Shown one piece after another: positions 10,627 through 54,850 of a stretch of DNA of 64,000 bases. The position numbers and the translations under genes are program-made. The notes below the pieces were generated by a model that searched no databases, was not told the DNA's origin, and saw only the letters and a program-made list of their open reading frames with translations. Source of the stretch: an uncultured Gammaproteobacteria bacterium (GTDB lineage Bacteria > Pseudomonadota > Gammaproteobacteria > UBA9214). The stretch spans positions 160,001-224,000 of the forward strand of contig CAVYZN010000009.1 of the NCBI GenBank assembly GCA_963773065.1. Direction: 5' to 3'. Positions within the stretch are counted from its first letter, which is position 1. Every line of letters starts with the position of its first letter.

Positions 10627-13239
10627 GTGACTCACCAGATACTTCGTTTTGGCTCACCGAGCGATCCAACGCTCACTGTGCGCATCAAGGGCAACGTCAA
10701 AGTCTGCGTACCCAACAACATCTCCCTGATGACTCCTTATGTGCTGCTCGAGCAGGAAGATTGGTTTGAGGACGAAATTAGTTTCGTCCGCAGCGTACTT
10801 GGTTCGGGAGATCGCGTTATTGACATTGGAGCAAACTACGGGATTTATACCTTGACCGCGGCCGCGGTGGTTGGGGCGCAGGGCGAGGTGTGGGCATTCG
10901 AACCATGCACCGAAACGGCTGGATTCTTGCGGCAGAGCGTGGGCAAGAATGCATTTGGCAATGTGGAGGTAATGACCACCGCTCTGTCGGATCGTCAGGG
11001 CAGCGGCTATTTGAGTCTGTCGCCCAACTCGGAGTTGAACGCTTTAACCAATGATCGCAATCCGCGAAGGCTCTTACGAAGAGATTCAGACGGATACCAT
11101 GGATCAATGTATGTCACGCTACGGTTGGTCTGACATCGCTTTCGTCAAACTCGACGCCGAGGGACATGAAGAGAGGATATTGAAAGGCGCAGCGAAGTTT
11201 CTTGCAGCGGCTTCGCCTCTTGTCATGTACGAAATCAAGGCAGGCGAGCGGGTCAATTTGGATTTGGTCGACGCCTTTCGGACCCTGGAGTATGACAGCT
11301 ATCGATTGGTGCCAGGGCTCGGTGTACTCGTGCCGTTTGATGCGACACAGAATATCGACCCCTACCAACTCAATTTGTTCGCCTGCAAGCGCGATCGCGC
11401 AGAAATGCTTGCACGCAAAGAGTTGCTAGTGACAGCGTACGAGTCGGTACAAGTTCCCGCCGACAGTTTCCTAACGATATCGTGGATCGAACCGGAAGAG
11501 TGGCAGATAAAGTTGCGTCAATCCTGGATCGCGGCCTGGCCGCAGTTGCAGGGTACAGAAAGCGGCAAGGCGTATCTTCAAGCACTCGAATGTTACGCCG
11601 CAGCCTATGACGGTGGAAAACCGCTCACGCAGCGGATCGGGTATCTGGCGCAAGCATGTGATCTTCTCTTGGCAGTTGTGCAGGGATCTGGAAATAGTTT
11701 CAGTCGTTTATTGTCATTCGCGCGCGCGGCAGCAGATTGGGGACAGCGCAACCTCGCGGTAATCGCGTATGAGCAATTACTCGTGGCGATGCAAAACGTC
11801 ATGCCAGTATAGATGAACGAGAACCATTTCTGCCGCCGCAAGCTCCCGGGTTGATGCGCCCAATCGCAGACCACTCGTCCTCATGGATAGTTGCCGCTAT
11901 CGCGGAGCAATTCGAACGACTGTCTGAATATTCGTCCTATTTCTCCGGGGCAGGACACCACGCTCTGCTCGAGAGTTTTCGCAGCCTAGGCTATCCGTCG
12001 GCCGAGATGGAACGCAGACGCCAACTATTGATAATTACATAACCACGTGACATCAGAACAACTCTGCCTGTTTCCAGAACGCTGCGACCAGCGTGGTGCG
12101 CGCTGCGCGGATTTGAGCTTGCTGCGTGTCGTGTGGGCCAGGTCCGCAATGGAATTCGGACAGAAATTCGCCAGCGCGTGACGCTTGAGCCAGGCCCATA
12201 GGTATTCGACTGGATTGAGCTCCGGTGCATAAGGCGGCAGGAAGGCCATGGCGATATGCCCGTTGAGGGTATCGACGTAGTCGCGTAACATCCGGGAACG
12301 GTGCGCCCGAAGTCCATCCCAGATGATTAGCAGCGGCTGCTTGATCTGTGCGATCAGTGCTTTCAGGAATGCCACGATCTGCGGACTCTTGATCGTACCC
12401 GGATGCAGACGAAAGTAGGCGCTGGTGAAACTGACGCTGGCGATCATCGACAACTGTTTCCAGTTGAAATGGAACTGGATGACTGGCGTTTGCCCTCGCG
12501 GCGCCCAAGTGCGTACCCGCGTGGGCCGTTCGGACAGGCCCGACTCGTCGATAAAAAGGATTACCCGGCCTTCGCGGCAGGCTTTTTTTTGAGTGCAGGC
12601 CACGTGCGCCTCTTCCAATGCGCCACGGCCTCTTCGTTGCGCTCGATCGCGCGCTTCTCGGGTTTCTGGCTGGAGAAGCCCATGGCACCCAGGATACGCC
12701 ACACGTGGACGTCGCTGTAGGTGATGCCGAAATGGTTCTCGATCAGCAGGCGTACCCGCTTGAGTGTCCACAGATCGGTGCCATATCCATTGGCGATGGG
12801 CCCGGCCAATAGCAACTCGCGCAGCGCGTCCAATTGTTCGACCGATATCCACGCCGGACGGCCTCCCTTGCTCATCTGGCGCAAGCCCTGGAATGCCGTG
12901 TTCCTGCAAAACACTGAACCAGCGATACACGGTCTGCCGCGGTGCGCCAACGGTTCTGGCTACCTCGGGTGGTGTCTTGCCTTTTAACAGCAGACGACCG
13001 GCACGAATTCGGCGCTTGGTCGCCGCGTCCATCTTCACCGCCATGGCGTACTCCCGATGTCACACTGACATCGCTATTATACGTGAATAGGCGATAACAT
13101 GTCATATGGTTATGTAATTATCAATAGTTCGTATGCGCAGCGGCCTTTCAAACGTCCCGAACCGAATTCGTCTCTGGCGGTCAGATCTGAATTCAATCTG
13201 AATTGCGAGCTATGGGCAGGTGCCAAGCCACTGGAATAG
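10627..13239 (+). pseudogene. FkbM-family methyltransferase with long C-terminal region, interrupted near its 3' end by IS630 and carrying several indels
   Basis: VIDIGANYGIY, AFEP, FVKLDAEGHE; EMERRRQL resumes as VRMRSG after the IS, and a shifted frame ends ELWAGAKPLE at 13239. Confidence 0.8.
12028..13124 (-). mobile_element. IS630-family insertion sequence
   Basis: 26-bp IRs TTGATAATTACATAACCA(CG/TA)TGACAT; TA duplication at 12026-27 and 13125-26; transposase motifs FIDESG, IIWDG, LPPYAPELNPVE; A8 site at 12583-12590 between the two frames. Confidence 0.95.
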
Positions 13240-13283
13240 GGTTAGCCGGCACGCGTTGCTGGCGTGTTGTCTTTTTTGCTTCG

Positions 13284-14138
13284 CTAGCGGAATAGTTTTT
13301 GAACAAGACCGGTCTTGTTCCCCTCATCGAACAAGCGGAAGCAATGGTATGACACATCCGGGCTTTGATATAAATAAGTCAACACCCCCAATTTTATTAA
13401 CTTTTCCGCGGGAAGGACGGCGAGTTCTTCGATATTTCTCATGAATAGCGCATCCGCCCACATGTGCTGAACCGCGAAGTTGAGGTCATTGTTTACGACT
13501 AGCGGCCTGATCGTTCGGCCAGCCAGGCCGAGAAACTTGTGGAACATGAATCCCCGATCCGTAAGGTAACTACAGACGTCGCCAAATAGCGGTTGATCAA
13601 TATAGAGCGGAATAAACTCCACTTCGCTAACAATCGCGACCACTTGTTCCAAGGTATGGATGCCGCCCTTGAATACGTCCAGTTCGGCTCCTTGGATATC
13701 GATTTTGATAAAATCGACGCCGGCGATTTCATGCTCTCTAGTAAAATGATCCAGACTCACCGTGTCGATCTGACCAACGGATTTCAGCATCGCGACATCC
13801 AGGTTATGATACAAACGCATTAGCTCTTCATTCGGTTTGAAGAGCGAGGTGCACATCGGATGTGATGTTTCGTAAAGCGCACGGTGCTCCTGTTTGCGAC
13901 CGAGCGCCACCGGAAAGTACTTGAGCCCCGGTATTGCCTTGCCGTTCAGGTCCGCACATAATTTCTCGTCGATTTCGAACGCAATGATTTCGGTTCCAGG
14001 AAATGCGTCTAATAGCGGGTGAAACGGTTCCGTCACGCCCTCCAGTGGCAATGCGCCGATTTCCAGGATTCGAAAGGTGAGCGGGCCGTATATTTCGCTG
14101 ATTATCTTCGCTACCGCGCCAATTTTGTTTATAAGCAT
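13284..14138 (-). CDS. FkbM-family methyltransferase
   Basis: ILEIGA, VSLDHF, DFIKIDIQGAELDVFKG, EVEFIPLY, WADALF. Confidence 0.88.
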   Translation of the reverse strand: MLINKIGAVAKIISEIYGPLTFRILEIGALPLEGVTEPFHPLLDAFPGTEIIAFEIDEKLCADLNGKAIPGLKYFPVALGRKQEHRALYETSHPMCTSLFKPNEELMRLYHNLDVAMLKSVGQIDTVSLDHFTREHEIAGVDFIKIDIQGAELDVFKGGIHTLEQVVAIVSEVEFIPLYIDQPLFGDVCSYLTDRGFMFHKFLGLAGRTIRPLVVNNDLNFAVQHMWADALFMRNIEELAVLPAEKLIKLGVLTYLYQSPDVSYHCFRLFDEGNKTGLVQKLFR

Positions 14139-14216
14139 TTCGTAATTTGCTCCTTATTGATCCGATTGCCGACTGCGGCTCGGAACTCCGCGTATCTTCG
14201 TTGGGTGGTAGTCTGA

Positions 14217-14423
14217 CTACGTTTGAGCGTTATACCACTTAACACACATCTCCCGTATGCCCGTTCAAGGTGCTGTGCAAAGGGTTTACCATCGCACAGT
14301 GCCGTGCGCTGCATTCGCTCGCGTAATCCGGCTCTCAGCGTCAAGAGGTGATTAAGATTGCTGCTTCTTGACGGCAATGTTCACATACACGTCTGGAGTC
14401 TGAGCGATCAATTCCGGCAGGCC
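14217..14423 (-). pseudogene. C-terminal remnant of a second GT41/SPINDLY-like gene
   Basis: GLPELIAQTPDVYV...LRAGLRERMQRTALCDGKPFAQHLERAY parallels the C-terminus of the 5153-6928 protein (GLADLVAHSPDDY...LRASLRERVSTSPLC...VEDAY). Confidence 0.75.
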
Positions 14424-14424
14424 A

Positions 14425-15480
14425 CGTATAGGACTTTTAAAAGGCCTTTTTCCTCAAAAGTGAAAGTACTGCTGAACCTGCGGGGTGTCAATCACCCGTC
14501 TCCTGGGTCCAGGATTGGGGACTTTTCTATCCACTCATAGGCCCTCGGTGCCAAGTGTAAGCCGTTCGTTAGCAATAGCCGGACGGGTAATGTATCGGCA
14601 TAAGTGTTCGAGTTTGTGGCGCTGATCGATGGCGCAGCGTACCTCGGCATGGAGGCTGAAGCCGTACGCGCCGACACAGCATTGTTGCGTGGGTACGCCG
14701 GTTGACTGATGACCGTTTGCAGGCTCAACACTTCCTGACCCGCCCCCGGGCCCAAGCGCAATGCGGTAGGTGCAGGCCGCTGATTGCAGGGGCGCCAGCG
14801 CGGTATGCGGATCGGTTTCGGCCAGACAGGTCATTCCCTGCTCTTCAATGAGATAACCTTTGCGGGTTAATAGCTGCAGCAGGCGTTTTATGATCCGGCT
14901 GAGTAAAGCCTTCAACTCTCCCGAGGGGGTAGGGGCGCGAACGGAATGGAATACCGGTACGCCGCTAGTGGTGCGATAGACCCCATCGAGCATGAGGCAA
15001 TGCAGATGAATATTGAAATTGGCGGCCTAGCCAAAGCGCTGGATGAGGGTGACGGCGTCGGTGTCGGCTTGGGTGCGTTTTATTCCTGCTTATTTGATCA
15101 GAAATGCCGCAATGACCCGGTGGATGATCTGCAACACGGGTGCGAGCAGATGGGGATGGGCGGCAAAGAGGTAACGCAGCGGGATCGGAAATGACAGCAC
15201 CCATTGGCGCACCGGCACCCAGGGAATGACGAAATTAACCAGGTGGGCGTCTGTCTCCACCATGCGTCGGGCACCGCAGGCGGGGGCAAAAGCCACGCTA
15301 TAGGAGAAGGCCACGAGCTTCTCATAGGCGCAGTCGGCGCAACGCAGGCGTAGAAAACGATGGGCCAGTACGCCGCATTAAAAAATGACATCGAACTCCT
15401 CTTCAACAAAGTCGGGCAATCCCACCCGGTTTCAAGCTAGACTTGAGTTAAAAAGGATTCAAAGGTTGAATGGCACTTAC
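14425..15480 (-). mobile_element. Degenerate IS91/ISCR-like rolling-circle element
   Basis: Fragments LRLRCADC, CGARRM, VRQWVLSFP, LDGVY, GFSLHA, LCRYITRP with stops and frameshifts; oriIS-like end GCCTTTTAAAAGTCCTATACG on the minus strand at ~14425-14445. Confidence 0.8.
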
Positions 15481-15484
15481 TTAG

Positions 15485-16940
15485 TACTACTGTGTTATTA
15501 AATTCGCCTCACTATTGGGCGCCCGCAACAGGGACACTGTAGCAGTGTTCTGGCGATGGCGCGTGCCAGCCGGAAACGGCAGGTGGCGATCGACGTCGGC
15601 TCATGTCGCTGCATCGGTTCCAGCCCCGCGCGGGCGCAAGCGGGTGGGTAGGGTAGGCGCTTTGAGTTGAACGGAGTTTTTTTTACTGCCGGCGAGGCGT
15701 TCCAGCATCAGAAAACCGTAAGCGGCAATGCACAGACTCGCGTGATGATGGAAGCCTCTCCAGTTGCGGCCTTCGTAGTGACCCAGCCCAAGCTACTGCT
15801 TGAGCTCCTCGTAATCTCGCTAGATGCGCCAGCGTACCATCACCATGTAGATCATCTCCTGCTAGGGCAGGTTCCTGGGAAGATTGCTGCACCAGTAGTG
15901 GGCCGGTTCATCGGCACCCTCTGCCCATTCGATGATCAGCCACTCTTCGTCCCGGGGACGGTGACGGTGAGACGCACGCACGCGCACCCGCGCGAAAGCG
16001 AGCAACGGCCAGACACCCCCGGGCGACAGGTCACCGTCCGCCATCGCTTCCCCGGCAGCACCTGCGCCGACTCGGCTACGGAAATCGGCTGATGATCGTC
16101 GTCCCGCTGGAGTCGCCGGCGCGCTCTGCTGCGTTGGCCTTGAGGCTTCGGCTCGGTCAGCGGTTGATGTTCACCCCACCATACCGTCGTCCCCGGCCGT
16201 ACGCACACCGCATAGGTGAACTCGTGCGCAGCCAGTTGCTCGCGCCACGCCGTGTAGTCGCCGTAGGCGGCATCCGCCAGAACGACGCCGCGCGGATAAC
16301 CAGACGCCAAAGCCGCCTCGATCTGGCGCATCGCCAACGCCGGCTTGGTCTCGAAGCCAACCGCCTCGGGCACGCCGACCTGGCGGCGACGCGCCACATC
16401 GCCGGTCCACGCGGGCGGCAAGTACAATGGATAGGTGATAGGAAGGCTGCTGAAGGGCATGGCGATAGACAGCGACACCGCCACTCGGCAGTTGTCCTGC
16501 TCACGAGTCTGGCCGCAGTACTGACGCGCGACCCCCACCGAGTGGTTACCCTTCTACGCAAACGCCGTGACGTCCACGATGCAGAGCACTGGCATATCCT
16601 CACGCACCAGCTTGGGAAGCACGGCCCCGGCCACCGCCGACAACATCGCCTCGTCGCTCCAGGCCGCTTCGGCCGCCAGGTGATGCATCGACTGATGCGC
16701 CGAGCGTACATTCTGCGGCTGCACGCGCGCCGCCATCGGCTCCACGCTCTTGCGCTCACCCGGCAACATCGATCGCTTGATGTACCAGCGCGCCGGTTGC
16801 TCACGATCGGCGGGCATCGGCGTGTTCGCGATAGTGTCACTGTACTTCTTAAACTGTGCTTCCAGACTCAGACCCATGGCGAACCTCATAAAGCACTTGA
16901 AGAGGCCGGCATGATGCCTTATTTTATGACACGAAGAGTA
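15485..16940 (-). mobile_element. IS701-family element with frameshifted transposase
   Basis: ERKSVEPMAA, GVARQYCG, VVLADAAYG, EEWLIIEW; imperfect IRs (TACTACTGTGTTATTAAAT / ATTTTATGACACGAAGAGTA); TTAG direct repeat at 15481-84 and 16941-44. Confidence 0.85.
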
Positions 16941-16970
16941 TTAGCGAGCTTTTCAGTATATACATGACAT

Positions 16971-18278
16971 CACTGCTGTCCAAAACAGCCCCGAGCTGGC
17001 ATACGGCACCAAGGCCAGGGCGGCCTCAGGGTTGTCCAGCGGATCGGGCGGGATGGCAAAGGGCTTGTCGAGCCAGGCCATCAGATCGCGATGGGTGAAG
17101 AGATTCATGCGCAGCAGGGCCACCAGATTGGAGAGACTCCAGCCGAAGCGCGAGGATAGTTGCAGGTAGCGCAGCAGGAGCATCGAGATCAGTGCGGTCC
17201 AAATCTGGGTCTTCACCGCGTTGGCCGTGGTGCCCACGAAGGTCTTGATCTTCAAGTTCTGCTTCAGGGCCTTGAAGAACAGCTCGACCGCCCAGCGGTC
17301 CTTGTAGATGGCGGCAATGGTGCTGGCGCCCAGGCCGTGATGGTTGGTCAGAAACACCAGCGTCTCGCCGGTGTCCTCGCGCACGGCCTCGATGCGGCGC
17401 AACCGGTGCGGGCACTTCTCTTGCGCACCAGCGCCGCTCAGTTCAATCGTCTGGTCGCGCAGGATGCGGCGGTTTTGCGGCGGCTCGCGCTCCTCGATGA
17501 CTTCGAACTGGGCGTTGTCCTTCATGCGGGTGACGAAGAACACGCCCGCTTCGGTCCATTTGGCGAACAGCCGGTAGTCGTTGTAACCCCGGTCATCGAC
17601 CACGATGGTGCCCGGGCGCGAAAGGTGAATCTGCTGGGCCACCTTCACATCATGCACCGAGCCCTCGGTGATGATGCCGAAGCAGGGCAAGTAGCCGTCG
17701 TGATCGAGCACCAGGTGCAGCTTGACCGCCCCCTTGGTGCGCCGGAACTTCGCCCAGTCGTACATCGACAGGCACAGGTCGATTACCGTGGAATCGCAGG
17801 CTCACCAGTTTGTGCTTGAAGCGAAACTTGCGCGGTGCGCGCACGCTGGCGGCCACGGTCTCGAACAGCCCGTAGAAAGACCTGCTGGAACAGCTCCCAC
17901 GGACGATGGCGCGTTGGCGTAGGAAAGCGAGGAGCGCGCCGGCGCCTCGATGCCCAGGTGAGCAAGCTTGCCCTCGCAGCTCTTCAGCCCGCCTTCAATC
18001 TCGCGCAACGAATGCGCTCGCCCCAGTTGGCAGAACAGCATGGCCACGAACTGGCTCCAACTCGGAAAACCCTTTCGCAGCATACTCGGCACTGGTCTGC
18101 CTTGACCATGCGCTCAAACTCAATACGTGCGGAACCAGCTTGAGGATCTGGCTGAACATGCTGCATGATGCTCTCACGTTGGGCCTCCTTCGGTCCAGGT
18201 CAGGTGGGTTTGGCGACTTCACCTCTACCCTACACCTGCGGGACGGCCCAACGTCATATCCTGTTTTGGACGAGAGTG
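16971..18278 (-). mobile_element. IS4-family element (DUF4372-type N-terminus + DDE), frameshifted
   Basis: WSQFVAMLFCQL, SLREIE, GAVKLH, DRGY, YKDRWAVELFFKALKQNL; 18-bp IRs CACTGCTGTCCAAAACAG / CTGTTTTGGACGAGAGTG. Confidence 0.9.
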
Positions 18279-18548
18279 TTCACGTTTTTTATTTCCGTGT
18301 ATTTCCGTGTGTTTCGATGTACAGGGATGTACAAGTGTCGCGTGAGGGCACGACTGCAGGGATGCACGACTACAGGGATGTAGGAGGTAGGGTAACGCAT
18401 GGAGCAGTTACCGAGGAGATAGGGCACCAAATGTAGGCGCTTTAGGCAATGCAGGAGCAATTGCCGAGGAAGCCGGGAGCGACCCGTGGCCATTCTTTGC
18501 TCTCACTTCTCACTTCTCACTTCTCACTTCTCACTTCTCACTTCTCAC
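18279..18548. repeat. Composite intergenic repeat: TTCCGTG nonamers containing nested hairpin elements, then ~7 x TCTCACT abutting the prmA ATG
   Basis: Read directly; nested elements at 18315-18483, heptamers at 18501-18548. Confidence 0.9.
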
Positions 18549-19454
18549 ATGACCTGGCTGCAATTATCTGTTGTAGTCACTGGTGAAAGGTCAGAAGCTG
18601 CCACCGAGGTCTTGGTCGATGCCGGCGCGCTTTCCGTGACTTACCAGGATGCCGCCGATGAGCCGATTCTCGAACCGGCCCTGGGAGAGCATCCGGTGTG
18701 GTCGGCAACCCGCGTGGTGGCGTTGTTGCCGGACGGCTGTGATCCGGCCCGAATAACGCAACGCCTGCGCGAGGCGTTGCATGACGCGGAGATCGAGCTT
18801 CGGATTGACTATCTGGAAGACCGTGACTGGTCCAGCGCCTGGCGGGATAGTTTCCACGCCATGCGGTTTGGCGCGCGCCTGTGGGTGGTGCCGAGCGGTG
18901 AGTCACCTCCTGTAGCGGATGCCGTCACGGTCCACATGGATCCGGGGCTCGCCTTTGGGACCGGCACGCATGCCACCACCGCGCTGTGCCTGGAGTGGCT
19001 GGATGCGCATCCGCCGCTGGATCGGGATGTCATTGATTATGGTTGCGGATCCGGAATACTCGCCATCGCGGCCGGCAAGCTGGGCGCAAGTCAGGTGCGC
19101 GCCGTGGATATCGATCCGCAAGCGTTGCAGGCCACGCGGGAAAATGCCGTGCGCAATGGTATTGGAGAGGATCTGGAAGCATTGTTTCCGGACGCCCTGG
19201 ATGCGCAACCGGCCGATCTGGTGATTGCCAATATCCTCGCCAACCCGCTGATCGAGCTTGCCGAGACCCTGGCCCGCCACGTGTCCCTGCGGGGCCATAT
19301 CGTTTTGACGGGTATTCTTGCGGAACAGGCCGGCGAGGTTATCGCGGCGTACCGGCCGTGGTTCGAGTTTCGCGAGCCCGTGAAACGTGAAGGATGGGTG
19401 CTGCTGGAGGGGGTGAAAGAACGTGAGACGTCAGAAGTGAGAAGTAAGAAGTGA
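18549..19454 (+). CDS. prmA: Ribosomal protein L11 methyltransferase
   Basis: MTWLQL start, DPGLAFGTGTHATT, DYGCGSGILAI, ANILANPL. Confidence 0.96.
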   Translation: MTWLQLSVVVTGERSEAATEVLVDAGALSVTYQDAADEPILEPALGEHPVWSATRVVALLPDGCDPARITQRLREALHDAEIELRIDYLEDRDWSSAWRDSFHAMRFGARLWVVPSGESPPVADAVTVHMDPGLAFGTGTHATTALCLEWLDAHPPLDRDVIDYGCGSGILAIAAGKLGASQVRAVDIDPQALQATRENAVRNGIGEDLEALFPDALDAQPADLVIANILANPLIELAETLARHVSLRGHIVLTGILAEQAGEVIAAYRPWFEFREPVKREGWVLLEGVKERETSEVRSKK

Positions 19455-19670
19455 GAAGTGAGAAGTGAGAAGTGAGAAGAAAGATGGCCACGGAAGTACA
19501 CGGAAGTACACGGAAATATTCCAAAACTTTTATGTAGATTCCGTCGTGCCTACTAGGGACGCACGCCTACCCGTGCACTCATGCCCGAGCGGGTTTTCTC
19601 ACTTCTCACTTTTTACTTGTTACTTTTTTCTGTGGGTTCAGTGGATTCCGTGGCCATAATCCGTGACCAT
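19421..19670. repeat. Heptamer/nonamer intergenic cassette
   Basis: (GAAGTGA)n, GCCACGGAAGTACACGGAAGTACACGGAA, then GCCCGAGCGGGTTTT-(TCACTTC)n-TTCCGTGGCCAT. Confidence 0.9.
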
Positions 19671-25272: not shown

Positions 25273-25625
25273 GAAGTGAGAAGTGAGAAGTGAGAAGAGA
25301 ACCCTGATGGCCACAGGTGCTCCCGGCTTCCTCGGCAATTGCTCCTGCATTGCCTACTCCGCACCCTGCAGACGTGCCCCACGCGACATTGTTCACCCTG
25401 AACATCGGCACACGGAAATCCGGAAGGAATTCAAATCTCCACGCAGGATACACATGGCGCACCCTGCGAGTTATGCGTGATGTACTTTGTAAACTGCTGT
25501 GGATCCTTGACTATTACTGTCTATCCATGCACGCGGCCAAGTGGTTTTTTCACTTCTCACTTCTCACTTTTTACTTTCCGGTGTTCTTCCGTGGCCATAA
25601 CCCGGTGCTATAAAGGAGAGCAAGA
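25260..25625. repeat. Heptamer/nonamer cassette containing a singly filled nested element (25317-25407)
   Basis: (GAAGTGA)n, ATGGCCACAG, CTCGGCAATTGCTCCTGCATTGCC, CTATCCATGCAC core, (TCACTTC)n, TTCCGTGGCCAT. Confidence 0.9.
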
Positions 25626-27632: not shown

Positions 27633-27967
27633 GAAGTGAAAGTGAAAAGTGAGAAGTGAGAAGTAAGAAGTAAGAAGTGAGAAGTGAAACGTGATATGTG
27701 AAGGGTTAAAAAGATCGTAATGGCCACGGGTCGCTTCCGGCTTCCAGCCTCACGCGACACTCGTACATCCCTGTACATCGAAGCACACGGAGGAAGTAAC
27801 TAGAAATCGTTAAACGCTGATCTTGGTGGAGTCGGTGCGCACGGCGCACCCTACAAAAGCCGGGCCTGAATGATCTGGGGTGATTGAACTGTTTCCGTTT
27901 GCTCCAGTGGCTATTATTTTCTCACTTCTCACTTCTCTACTTCTCACTTCTTACTTCTTACTTCTCA
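27632..27967. repeat. Heptamer cassette between convergent htpX-like gene and rho, with an empty B element (27730-27780) and a REP (27834-27854)
   Basis: (GAAGTGA)n after the htpX stop; (TCACTTC)n next to the rho stop; GGTGCGCACGGCGCACCCTAC. Confidence 0.9.
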
Positions 27968-54674: not shown

Positions 54675-54850
54675 TTACTAAGACCATCACAAGTCATGCC
54701 ACGCGCTCCGCTGCGGTGAGGGGCGTCGAAACATGTCGTGAATACGTCCCTGTAGGCCCGTGTGCCACCGACCTGGCGGTATACGGTCCTGGCAAGACCA
54801 TCCCGGAGCATGCTCCTGCAAAGTGGCTCTACTAACGAAGGTTTTAGTAA
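54675..54850. mobile_element. MITE-like intergenic element containing a CAGGGA-type hairpin
   Basis: TTACTAAGACCATC / GAAGGTTTTAGTAA terminal IRs (12/14); internal GTGAATACGTCCCTGTAGGC. Confidence 0.55.

Follow-up and report, generated by a model that had tools for sequence, protein, structure and literature searches.

How does a stack of short DNA units without genes, each lodged inside another, come to lie upstream of a prmA-like gene, and do such units move? The question is raised by positions 18315-18483 of the window (the whole 64,000-nucleotide stretch of DNA analysed here), where four modules of 22 to 69 bases are nested in the order 10-mer repeat > B (52 nt) > A (47 nt plus inserts) > A' (48 nt) and E (22 nt) (Table 1). 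Our preferred answer, to which we assign a probability of roughly 0.6, is that the stretch consists of four gene-less insertion modules built from hairpins, and that A is a miniature non-autonomous mobile element distributed across Gammaproteobacteria.

Table 1. Host repeats, nested modules, and downstream gene, with positions in the window.
Feature	Position	Strand	Composition and basis
Host repeat, left part	18290..18314	+	10-mer TATTTCCGTG twice, then TGTTT; repeat family D2, spacing 10; third unit finished by CCGTG at 18484-18488
Element B, 5' part	18315..18350	+	CGA, hairpin 1 (TGTACA-GGGA-TGTACA), GTGTCGCG-TGA, 5' arm of hairpin 2 (GGGCA); restored as whole B once A is removed
Outer element A, 5' part	18351..18366	+	CGA and hairpin 1 (CTGCA-GGGA-TGCAG) without its final G; 18355-18366 are model positions 5-16
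Element A', complete, 48 nt	18367..18414	+	CGA, hairpin 1 (CTACA-GGGA-TGTAG), GAG, GTAG, hairpin 2 (GGTAACGC..GC-A-GTTACC), GA; 75.7 bits, model positions 1-48; fold; covariation
Outer A, middle part	18415..18426	+	GGAGATAG and start of hairpin 2 (GGCA); in-silico removal, composite alignment
Module E, 22 nt	18427..18448	+	CCAAATGTAGGCGCTTTAGGCA; removal test, 22-column gap in paralogues
Outer A, 3' part	18449..18467	+	remainder of hairpin 2 (ATGC-AGGA-GC-A-ATTGCC), then terminal GA; 18445-18465 are model positions 25-46, 20.8 bits; removal test
Element B, 3' part	18468..18483	+	GGA loop, 3' arm AGCC, then GGGAGCGAC
Host repeat, right part	18484..18493	+	CCGTGGCCAT; kept beside B-type inserts elsewhere and in empty orthologous sites
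Tandem heptamer array	18501..18549	+	about 7 copies of TCTCACT; reaches the prmA start codon; repeat family D1
prmA-like gene	18549..19454	+	open frame to 19454; 78-84% identical in same-genus genomes

Results

Four modules are nested upstream of prmA

The stack was taken apart by removing its members in silico. Without A', outer A aligned along the entire model, and removal of a further 22 nt (E) left a contiguous full-length A scoring 49.9 bits (compared with 46.9 bits for A'). When 18351-18467 was deleted, B aligned over model positions 1-50 at 52.5 bits (before deletion, 1-41 at 44.2 bits), and once B itself was removed, the word TTCCGTG recurred at an exact 10-nt period (offsets 23, 33, and 43). 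A sequence-only reading of this DNA had proposed B, outer A, and A', and all of its coordinates and letters for these units are present in the sequence. Its nesting of the three units stands, but it missed the fourth module, E; similarly, it was right that B interrupts a host repeat, but the period is ten (repeat family D2) rather than nine.

A' is inserted at TGCA^GGAG of outer A, in agreement with the earlier proposal that A carries its own target; A' has TGTA at the same place. E interrupts the 5' arm of hairpin 2 in outer A, which measures 69 nt because it also contains this module. Because GGCA is repeated on both sides, the start of E is ambiguous between 18423 and 18427 (five equivalent registers, 4 nt). 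The source genome holds nine copies of E, three of them outside A. Arrays identical to the TCTCACT array are found elsewhere in the source genome and in relatives; this array belongs to the same host repeat family and lies outside the nested elements. The downstream gene, which we take to encode ribosomal protein L11 methyltransferase, served as the anchor for comparison of the orthologous locus.

Element A has fixed loops and covarying stems

Element A (47-48 nt) opens with CGA and hairpin 1, whose loop is GGGA. GGAG and GTAG then lead to hairpin 2, which has a bulged A and the loop AGGA, and the element closes with GA. A covariance model built for A gave 49 matches in the source genome, and the stems covary as the compensatory differences between A and A' had led the sequence-only reading to expect. 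Across 48 distinct copies from many genomes, covariation was detected at pairs 6-15, 27-45, and 30-42; the three compensatory differences are real and fall on exactly these pairs. Changes on both sides of a pair were found in 27 cells, compared with 5.9 +/- 2.0 after shuffling, and none of 500 shuffles reached the observed value. Paired cells amounted to 92.3%, compared with 11.7-55.1% when the partners were slid, and the loops are fixed while the stems covary. The DNA fold of A' (-9.1 kcal/mol, z -4.56) agrees with the proposed structure, and both strands fold about equally well. Within GTAG, whose distance to hairpin 2 is 1-2 nt, conservation is at least 90% at G21 and T22 and complete at A23 and G24 (alignment A1); since the 24-nt search pattern for A fixed TAG, only the secondarily found copies are unbiased with respect to this conservation.

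The search pattern found 27 copies of A in the source genome, and nhmmer found 50; for B, nhmmer gave 41 matches, 26 of them full length. Beyond the source genome, A was recovered from at least 119 contigs belonging to other genomes; it occurs in 35 of 40 genomes of the same family and in 17 of the 150 other families searched in the class. Its distribution is patchy, its sequence is nearly invariant, and its copy number ranges from 0 to 27 within one genus. The same 47 bases are found in Pseudomonas, Pseudoalteromonas, methanotrophs, sulfur oxidisers, and Lysobacterales. The reversed search pattern had no match in all 151 and all 41 genomes searched; given the 27 matches of the true pattern in the source genome alone, chance is excluded. 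A is a real family. An Rfam scan of 17500-19500 with E-values up to 10 returned only mir-731 (21.6 bits against a gathering score of 70), and a search of phage records gave no match. The literature search found no description of the A family and nothing specific in work on nested RAYTs or REPs; the element strings, searched on both strands, gave only two unrelated primer matches.

Filled and empty sites support precise insertion

In four same-genus genomes, the site upstream of prmA is empty, and the sequence ..TTCCGTGGATT^CCGTGGCCAT.. runs uninterrupted. Near-identical composites occur at two other loci of the source genome and in the assembly of one other species. When composites were aligned, they differed by exactly E (22 columns, a gap present in two paralogous composites) and by exactly a further module, G (42 columns), providing clean filled/empty pairs. 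These orthologous and paralogous empty sites bear out the earlier proposal that discrete gene-less units are inserted precisely and without target duplication.

The composites upstream of prmA, at C9:132.6 kb, at C6:18.9 kb, and at G002:C27 are clearly copies of one ancestral composite. The nesting is partly inherited through duplication of whole composites, and the nested copies are not all separate events. Three A copies that are identical at 47 of 47 positions lie in B copies that share at most 34 of 52 ungapped matches, which points to separate insertions. Contigs from public sequencing runs contain the un-nested joints (B without A, A without A' and E, and G after CAGGGA); these belong to other copies or organisms at 90% likeness and show only that un-nested forms exist. 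The public runs are all contigs, and none was found to contain the locus (best word share 0.21). Comparison of the hsdR locus with four same-genus genomes gave no matching orthologous site, and the C23 locus is rearranged in G001, with no clean empty site.

A has exact ends and a preferred target

Element A begins with CGAC and ends with CCGA (65 of 74 uninterrupted copies), has no terminal inverted repeats, and leaves a single ambiguous base at its junctions. The target previously read as GCA^GGA holds as a consensus, GNGCA^GGA, and is not duplicated. Of the 73 copies compared in other genomes, 67 have A at position -1 and 66 have G at +1; C (37) or G (19) occupies -2, and G is found at -3 in 45 and at -5 in 46. 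In the source genome, GCA closes the left flank of 22 of 39 copies.

The same 39 copies with an intact 5' end have diverse hosts: hairpin 2 of B (8), A itself after hairpin 1 (6), CGCAAAG-type repeats (8), a tandem arrangement (1), and other contexts (16). The same exact ends recur in B, in CGCAAAG repeats, in REP loops, and in the genes hsdR, pglX, and an IS4-type transposase; in all three genes A is in frame, in pglX and hsdR in its 48-nt form, and copies inside coding frames occur on either strand. A perfect flank stem of at least 5 bp spans the insertion point at 12 of 69 sites in other genomes, compared with 226 of 2070 controls, and targeting of hairpins by A is only partial. In all six A-in-A nests of the source genome the inner copy is of the TACA type, and in at least five the outer hairpin is recognisably of the TGCA type. 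B is found in a TTCCGTG context at four loci.

Orientation was compared with two references. Relative to the G-rich strand, taken from the sign of the GC skew on contigs as a weak proxy for the replication strand, A was divided 20 to 17 and B 15 to 13. Relative to neighbouring genes in tandem spacers, A was divided 10 to 10 and B 8 to 12 by crude gene calls, and this lack of bias argues for an element acting at the DNA rather than the RNA level.

Candidate enzymes do not track copy number

The earlier reading had suggested an HUH-type enzyme as a possible mover. This idea gained no support: the HUH assignment is only an analogy, and Y1, canonical RAYT, IS91-type Y2, and reverse transcriptase genes do not track the copy number of A. 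Within the family, Y1 genes are present in 15 of 17 high-copy and 16 of 18 low-copy genomes (count correlation rho 0.39, ignoring kinship), canonical RAYTs in 6 of 17 and 6 of 18, IS91-type Y2 genes in 12 of 17 and 11 of 18, and reverse transcriptases in 9 of 17 and 9 of 18. Canonical RAYTs are also present in three genomes without A, and a search of the source genome with the L193 query gave no match. The extremes for Y2 are a genome with 27 A copies and no such gene (G176) and a single-copy genome with four; the Y2 genes of the source genome are broken. At the level of the class, Y1 genes are found in 16 of 17 A-positive and 77 of 133 A-negative genomes, counts that are raw with respect to kinship and genome size and include two unpublished A-negative genomes (G057 and G159).

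Proximity gave a comparable picture. Of the 10 Y1 matches in the source genome, none has an A copy within 3 kb, and only one B copy lies that close to any of them; across 130 loci, no gene family turned up repeatedly within about 4 kb of A. The Y1-like genes of the source genome belong to the TIR-flanked subclass 2.1, and their flanks are GGGG[AT][CG]A[CG] rather than A or B, and a search of solved structures found no match for one Y1-like protein. The resident IS200, present in two identical copies, has terminal hairpins unrelated to A. Genomes with 22 and 17 A matches show no Y1 match, although their assemblies are fragmented and Y1 may be missed. In G086, a RAYT gene is flanked by a different REP, and A sits within that REP. 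The window had been read as holding no HUH enzyme that could be linked to the elements; it does hold a broken IS91-type (Y2 HUH) remnant at about 14535-15314, and nothing ties this remnant to them.

Several other leads were followed and rejected. A left ends lacking a nearby right end, considered as possible autonomous versions, proved to be hairpin-2 variants or copies cut by insertion sequences, and the apparent partner of A at C32:29.9 kb is in fact an IS4-type element that has inserted into A itself. Recombination at a shared GCAGGA core predicts a permuted module order, which was not seen. Serine-recombinase and IS110-type models were set aside because the junctions share only one base.

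Discussion

How the modules may have spread

The empty and filled sites, the covariation, the target consensus, and the patchy spread support the earlier view of A as mobile, non-autonomous, and target-preferring. We propose that A integrates in one orientation, without terminal inverted repeats or target duplication, landing 3' of (C/G)A and 5' of G. Since CAGG(G)A occurs in hairpin loops of A, B, and related repeats, these units serve as targets for one another, which produces the Russian-doll pattern. B and G land on the other side of such loops (CAGGGA^TG). The elements are probably moved in trans. By analogy, the likeliest candidate for the mover is an HUH enzyme of the Y1 type that acts on GTAG-tagged REPs, recognising single-stranded DNA in its folded form; this proposal is tentative, and we would expect it to be wrong more often than right.

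Another trans-acting reader of CAGG(G)A could move the same DNA: a host enzyme that is conserved, or a recombinase or nuclease as yet unrecognised and carried on a plasmid or island. We regard this alternative as doubtful. It would account for the failure of all four candidate families to track copy number, the absence of replication-strand bias, and the lack of a recurring neighbour gene family, and the near invariance of A across orders, at 1-6 copies in many genomes, fits a conserved or horizontally shared recogniser. On the other hand, the search gave no candidate protein, the known double-strand recombinases require a core common to the two junctions, which here share a single base (A), and GTAG followed by a hairpin is the hallmark of Y1 substrates (PMC8266576). 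It is improbable, in our judgement, that nesting mostly reflects hitch-hiking, with short-patch gene conversion of host repeats or composite duplication and only rare new insertions. The four copies of one composite, the prevailing TACA-in-TGCA pairing of the A-in-A nests, and the shared TTCCGTG context of B speak for it. However, exact A ends recur in unrelated contexts, identical A copies lie in divergent B copies beside empty B of the same subtype, E and G are present or absent inside one composite lineage, and host arms of 16-36 nt offer recombination very little length.

We consider it very improbable that the modules are structured RNAs (stabilisers, terminators, or regulators), kept for an RNA function or copied through reverse transcriptase. 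Their GNRA-type loops (GGGA) and covarying stems are compatible with such a role, and pieces appear in metatranscriptome contigs, from libraries that can contain DNA. Against this stand the even orientation with respect to crudely called genes, the similar folding of both strands, the lack of an Rfam family match, the similar frequency of reverse transcriptase in high- and low-copy genomes, and the copies on either strand of coding frames. Finally, a chance resemblance or an assembly artefact is barely credible. The assembly comprises 33 contigs with 6.3% estimated contamination, and no public run was found to hold the locus; nevertheless, hundreds of independent assemblies contain the same units and the reversed control gave no match. 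An artefact is unlikely because near-identical composites stand at two other loci and in another species' assembly.

Building on the mobile-element reading, A, B, E, and G might together form a class of 'loop-invading' mobile DNA, ultra-small at 22-52 nt and so far without a name: hyper-parasites in the hairpin loops of REPs and other selfish repeats, moved by a conserved host single-strand DNA enzyme or by various Y1 nucleases acting promiscuously on the CAGG(G)A loop. We think this broader idea unlikely. Members of such a class would cross order boundaries almost unchanged in genomes without a transposase of their own kind, and the cyanobacterial SDRs would be further examples.

Relation to known elements

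The closest known kinds to the A family are GTAG-tagged REP/BIME elements and cyanobacterial SDRs. RAYTs require GTAG and a hairpin and act on single strands, with the Marinomonas RAYT cutting at CT and CA (PMC8266576), and GTAG REPs occur inside other palindromes and inside ORFs (PMC3733652). REP/BIME elements resemble A in having GTAG directly 5' of an imperfect bulged hairpin (PMC8266576, PMC3733652, PMC6006769) and in being short, gene-less, and mostly intergenic, with mosaic and tandem arrangements. The left flank of A ends in CA in 37 of 73 copies and in GA in 19 of 73, CA being one of the dinucleotides cut by the Marinomonas RAYT. A differs in its second, unrelated 5' hairpin and defined asymmetric ends, in a sequence nearly constant across orders where REPs are species-specific, and in flanking no RAYT gene in the source genome, with tens of copies rather than hundreds.

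SDR4-6 of heterocyst-forming cyanobacteria (PMC4390886) are very small like the present modules (21-27 nt compared with 22-52 nt here), insert precisely at a fixed short motif as A does (SDR5 between bases 3 and 4 of HIP1), and lack a known transposase. They belong to another phylum and are unrelated in sequence, whereas A has two hairpins with a GTAG tag and is near-fixed in sequence over many orders. The SDRs that Elhai and co-workers described in 2008 are reportedly nested in one another, in genomes that also contain heptamer tandem arrays.

The PATEs derived from IS200/IS605, like A, lack inverted terminal repeats and do not duplicate the target; both carry subterminal hairpins at each end, insert 3' of a specific short word, and keep a strict orientation. 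In contrast, the two hairpins of A resemble neither one another nor the ends of the resident IS200, they lie only 2-3 nt from the ends of A, and the base after the insertion point is also conserved. A replication-coupled mechanism of the IS200/IS605 type would predict a strand bias, and by the GC-skew proxy on contigs, weak as it is, A and B show none. Rickettsia palindromic elements (RPEs) and in-frame REPs resemble A in their in-frame insertion inside genes; most A copies, however, are intergenic or in other repeats, and sequence and host range differ. Members of the IS1397, ISKpn1, and IS621 group, which are cited in PMC3116915 and PMC3733652, insert into the loops of small palindromic repeats, but they are 1-1.5 kb long and carry a transposase gene of their own; A, B, E, and G lack coding capacity. 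A also differs from MITEs derived from DDE transposons in having neither terminal inverted repeats nor a target-site duplication, and from IS91/Helitron-like elements in that the presence of Y2 HUH genes does not go with A.

Significance

For genome annotation, these modules matter as units that break or lengthen clpB, hsdR, pglX, and transposase genes, and their long composites can pass for structured RNAs or regulatory sites. Should A indeed move, it would be among the smallest site-preferring mobile elements known, with an unusually wide host range, and the long-open question of how REP-like and SDR-like repeats spread would become testable. As a test system, A would offer exact ends, a defined target, sites that occur naturally in both empty and filled form, and closely related species whose copy numbers run from 0 to 27.

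Architecture of the stack and its host repeat

A reading of the sequence alone had placed copies of two gene-less, two-hairpin modules, A (47-48 nt) and B (52 nt), one within another at 18315-18483, and the letters there are exactly as it gave them. A repeat finder returned a 12-nt hairpin word three times in the window (18320, 18355, 18371), the 3' end of A twice (18401, 18454) and a period of 10 nt just upstream of the stack. Profiles of A, B and C (a family of long palindromic repeats) were built from copies elsewhere in the source genome, and inner units were then removed in silico. With the inner A copy, A', taken out, the outer A aligned across the whole model; removal of a further 22 nt, in a start register anywhere in 18423-18427, left a contiguous full-length A (49.9 bits). 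Removing 18351-18467 gave B aligned at positions 1-50 (52.5 bits), compared with 1-41 (44.2 bits) before removal, and taking out B left TTCCGTG recurring every 10 nt exactly. The removals thus resolve the stack into a 10-mer repeat hosting B, which hosts A, which in turn hosts A' and a 22-nt module, E. The proposed order of B, A and A' is borne out, E had been overlooked, and the interrupted repeat, previously taken for a nonamer, is a decamer. Elsewhere in the window, a degenerate A within a B-like unit and an empty B were also seen.

Tandem TCTCACT heptamers reach the start codon of the prmA-like gene, the next gene downstream of the stack; identical arrays occur elsewhere in the source genome and in same-genus genomes. 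They resemble the STRR arrays of cyanobacteria, which are likewise built of heptamers, and belong with the TTCCGTG decamers and GGCCAT to one larger repeat family. In relatives, the spacer between accC and prmA contains this family as an inverted pair. In the window this spacer is filled with insertion-sequence remnants.

Coordinates of features in the window and in other records (C plus a number, contig of the source genome; L plus a number, locus)
Feature	Location	Remark
A'	window 18367-18414	covariance model of A, 75.7 bits
Outer A, 5' hairpin	window 18355-18366	covariance model of A
Outer A, 3' half	window 18445-18465	covariance model of A
Degenerate A within B-like unit	window 25332-25374 (-)	TTCCGTG..CCGTGGCCAT context
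Empty B	window 27732-27780 (-) = C9:187732-187780	TTCCGTG..CCGTGGCCAT context
TCTCACT heptamers	window 18501-18549	
Identical TCTCACT arrays	C16:7368-7527; C17:19713-19816; C6:24523-24654	
Spacer with insertion-sequence remnants	window 12025-18260	
IS630-like gene	window 12025-13044	
Methyltransferase-like frame	window 13284-14138	
IS91-type fragments	window ~14535-15314	broken gene
IS4/IS701-like frames	window 15936-16889, 16953-18092	
Family C examples	C6:205497-205600; C8:218251-218353; window 54725-54798 (-)	
B in first loop of C	C7:6209-6354; C23:33552-33743	second: A within B within C
A hosting B	C15:24988	
A in pglX	L140:311-358 (Salmonella plasmid NZ_CP133280.1); Moellerella plasmid NZ_CP093250.1; E. 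coli NZ_CP047461.1, NZ_CP047455.1	
A in HsdR-like gene	C14:158001-158048	48 nt, in frame
B-like units in clpB-like gene	C8:70922-71021 (L164)	two in tandem, 51 + 52 nt
IS91-type transposase genes with modules	C6:149274; C7:2910; C32:142139-144110	
IS4/IS1634-like transposase genes with A	C11:223022; C27:39093	open frames 611 and 614 aa
Subclass 2.1-kind Y1 genes	C8:39664-40521; C11:147976-148644; C17:85844-86575; C28:45832-47025	one with C-terminal helix-turn-helix-like tail
REP hosting A beside RAYT gene	L193	genome G086
A in bins labelled Halobacteria, Chloroflexota, Rhodothermales, Deltaproteobacteria	L014, L048, L053, L075, L082	

Empty sites and composite copies

Four same-genus genomes carry orthologues of the prmA-like gene (78-84% identity), and upstream of it they read uninterrupted ..TTCCGTGGATT CCGTGGCCAT.. 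at the site of B and its contents. The window composite was aligned with two paralogues from the source genome and one from another species. E is present in the window and other-species composites and is an exact 22-column gap in both paralogues. The other-species composite also contains an additional module of 42 nt, G, placed after CAGGGA in the hairpin 1 loop of outer A. Duplication of composites thus accounts for part of the stack, with E and G gained or lost later. Three A copies are identical (47/47) despite strongly differing host B copies, and empty B copies exist for the same subtypes as these hosts. In metagenome contigs, B is seen lacking A, A is seen lacking A' and E, and G follows CAGGGA; since these joints belong to other copies or organisms, they are evidence only that un-nested forms exist. 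Overall, A, B, E and G are distinct units of DNA that have been inserted with precision at preferred short motifs, in a single orientation and with no duplication.

Fold and covariation of A

A consists of CGA, hairpin 1 (CTGCA-GGGA-TGCAG), GAG, GTAG, hairpin 2 (for example GCAACGC-AGGA-GC-A-GTTGC, with a bulged A) and CGA. In 48 distinct copies (A' and 47 from other genomes), 92.3% of cells were paired, against 11.7-55.1% with slid partners. Changes on both sides of a pair numbered 27 cells, compared with 5.9 +/- 2.0 after shuffling, and none of 500 shuffles reached 27. As a caveat, the search pattern had fixed part of hairpin 1, though it did permit non-pairing combinations. Covariation was found at pairs 6-15 (GC 42, AU 6), 27-45 (CG 41, UA 7) and 30-42 (CG 31, UA 13), and the three compensatory differences already noticed between A and A' fall on exactly these pairs. 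The two-hairpin fold is predicted on both DNA strands (z -4.6 and -5.4); for the Pseudomonas-type hairpin 2 variant it is not significant (z -1.0). The loops and the GGAGGTAG spacer stay constant while the stems vary, which suggests that a protein recognises a folded strand.

Targets and hosts

Among uninterrupted A copies of other genomes, 65 of 74 end in CCGA at the 3' side. Flanks tallied in 73 such copies carry G at -5 (46/73), G at -3 (45/73), C (37/73) or G (19/73) at -2, A at -1 (67/73) and G at +1 (66/73), with purines most frequent at +2 and +3. The GCA^GGA target first suggested by the stack thus holds as a consensus in which A^G is nearly fixed, and target duplication is absent, as had been claimed: the junctions have none, only a single ambiguous base. 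In A', the target word TGCA of A is replaced by TGTA. Perfect stems bridging the insertion point are 5 bp or longer at 12/69 sites versus 226/2070 controls, and 7 bp or longer at 7/69 versus 28/2070; the tip of a host hairpin is enriched as an insertion point but is not the rule.

The source genome (3.84 Mb, 33 contigs, 60.4% G+C) gave 50 nhmmer matches for A, 41 for B and 46 for C, of which 36, 26 and 13 were full length; the covariance model returned 49 A matches (E-value <=0.01). Of the 39 A copies whose 5' end is intact, 8 lie in B hairpin 2 (..GGCA^GGATGCC..), 6 just past hairpin 1 of another A (..GATGCA^GGAGGTAG), 8 in CGCAAAG-type short repeats (..GCGCA^AAG..), 1 behind another A and 16 elsewhere. 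Their left flank has A as its last base in 32 copies and GCA as its last three in 22. Of the 37 B copies whose 5' end is intact, 15 are preceded by the ..GGA of GGGA-type loops in other hairpins (loops of A and C among them), 7 stand in tandem, 4 interrupt the TTCCGTG repeat, 3 are preceded by ..CCTA and 8 lie elsewhere. A therefore hosts B as well as the reverse. Six of nine E copies sit at one same place in A, and two of the other three are frame breaks in IS91-type transposase genes. Members of family C are palindromes of ~96-115 nt with two inner GGGA-loop hairpins, the first of which carries B in several copies. A, B and related repeats target one another because their loops contain CAGG(G)A.

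Copies inside genes

Within the BREX methyltransferase gene pglX of Salmonella and Moellerella plasmids, a full-length A of 48 nt and of the Pseudomonas-type variant keeps the reading frame, a form also present in 2 of 5426 E. coli genomes; these copies look like A travelling between genera within a defence gene. In the source genome, A also lies in frame in a gene that we take to encode the type I restriction enzyme subunit HsdR (..FIVF, the insert, then DEGGGKLIKKMAGYHQF..). Two tandem B-like units follow ..SNLGSQMIQEMVG in a clpB-like gene; this insert, 103 nt in total, shifts the frame and the conserved C-terminal part goes on in the +1 frame, so that the gene is either broken or contains a one-base assembly error. 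Three IS91-type transposase genes are full of small modules, among them E, which disrupts the frame at ..LKRV^..IDIETC..; A-type and other hairpin units lie further along, and removal of 22 nt restores the frame in two of the three. Two paralogous IS4/IS1634-like transposase genes contain A in frame at an identical site, read on the opposite strand.

Candidate movers and known systems

Given that A, B, E and G have no coding capacity, we infer that they are moved in trans. A resembles a substrate of Y1 HUH nucleases because it has GTAG and a bulged hairpin, fixed loops, no inverted ends, no duplication and a left flank of CA or GA. According to PMC8266576, RAYTs (REP-associated Y1 HUH nucleases) use single-stranded REPs as substrates and require GTAG plus a hairpin, and a Marinomonas RAYT cleaves to both sides of the hairpin, at CT and CA. 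By analogy, a Y1 nuclease would act on single-stranded, folded A.

Ten Y1 (PF01797) matches were found in the source genome. Three are of the IS200/IS605 type, and the ends of the two identical IS200 copies are unlike A. The remainder best match the NCBI REP-associated tyrosine transposase model below its cut-off (59-73 vs 80 bits), and their flanking inverted repeats, GGGG[AT][CG]A[CG], are the signature of TIR-associated subclass 2.1, for which PMC6006769 gives no known REP partner. Within 3 kb of any of the ten matches there is no A and only one B, and a canonical RAYT was not found in this genome with a query from genome G086. In G086 itself, a true RAYT gene is flanked by a typical GTAG REP whose loop contains A; there, A is a guest of the REP and not the REP itself. 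The sequence-only reading had linked no enzyme of the window to the elements; a broken IS91-type gene is present, and nothing ties it to them.

Among 41 genomes of the family, those with at least 10 A matches (n=17) and those with at most 2 (n=18) were compared for any Y1 (15/17 vs 16/18), canonical RAYT (G086 query; 6/17 vs 6/18), IS91-type Y2, another HUH kind (12/17 vs 11/18), and reverse transcriptase (9/17 vs 9/18). Without correction for kinship, Y1 and A counts correlate at rho 0.39. No Y1 match was found in two assemblies that carry 22 and 17 A matches, though both are fragmented and this absence is not proof. At class level, Y1 occurs in 16/17 A-positive versus 77/133 A-negative genomes, uncorrected for genome size and kinship and counting the unpublished, A-negative G057 and G159. 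No gene family recurs beside A in 130 loci. Orientation to the G-rich (leading) strand is unbiased in the source genome for A (20 vs 17), B (15 vs 13) and C (14 vs 16), giving no support for replication-coupled single-strand transposition. Orientation to neighbour genes in tandem spacers is likewise unbiased (A 10 vs 10, B 8 vs 12; crude gene calls, coding fraction only 0.70), which speaks against an RNA role tied to one strand.

The tests of co-occurrence and of strand thus all failed to support the HUH enzyme suggested earlier, and for this reason we put a single-strand HUH mechanism, still the leading idea given the substrate-like features of A, at only about one in three. Movement by some other enzyme is nearly as probable. 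The nesting also owes something to composite hitch-hiking and to short-patch conversion among host repeats.

The closest known kinds to A are GTAG-tagged REP/BIME elements and cyanobacterial small dispersed repeats (SDR). REPs are reported to occur inside other palindromes and in frame within genes (PMC3733652), and SDR5 inserts between bases 3 and 4 of HIP1 (PMC4390886). A differs from a REPtron in having no cognate flanking RAYT, does not classify as a MITE, and departs from a PATE in two of three tests. Rfam gave no match to the A-type elements in the window, and a literature search with A strings returned no relevant paper; we found no prior description of family A, although the REP lists accompanying PMC3733652 might include its GTAG hairpin.

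Distribution across genomes

At least 119 contigs of species-representative genomes contain an exact match to the 24-nt 5' half of A. Carriers among the matches listed, by record title, include Pseudomonas, Ectopseudomonas, Methylobacter, Methylococcaceae, Lysobacterales, Ectothiorhodospiraceae, Sedimenticola, Thiodiazotropha, Zhongshania, Marinimicrobium and a tubeworm symbiont. A few carrier metagenome bins are labelled archaea or other phyla; in five such loci A lies inside B once and the flanks are typical of Gammaproteobacteria. These bins possibly reflect mis-binning and not true hosts. With one genome sampled per family of the class, A was present in 17 of 150 (<=1 mismatch), and the reversed control pattern gave 0 matches. 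In the window's own family 35 of 40 genomes carry A, with 0 to 27 copies inside one genus. A is rare in viral contigs (11 stretches), and the phage records searched gave no match. AT-rich Pseudoalteromonas chromids carry its G+C-rich sequence unchanged. Taken together, this patchy spread and a mean column identity of ~91% point to horizontal movement of A and to strong sequence constraint.
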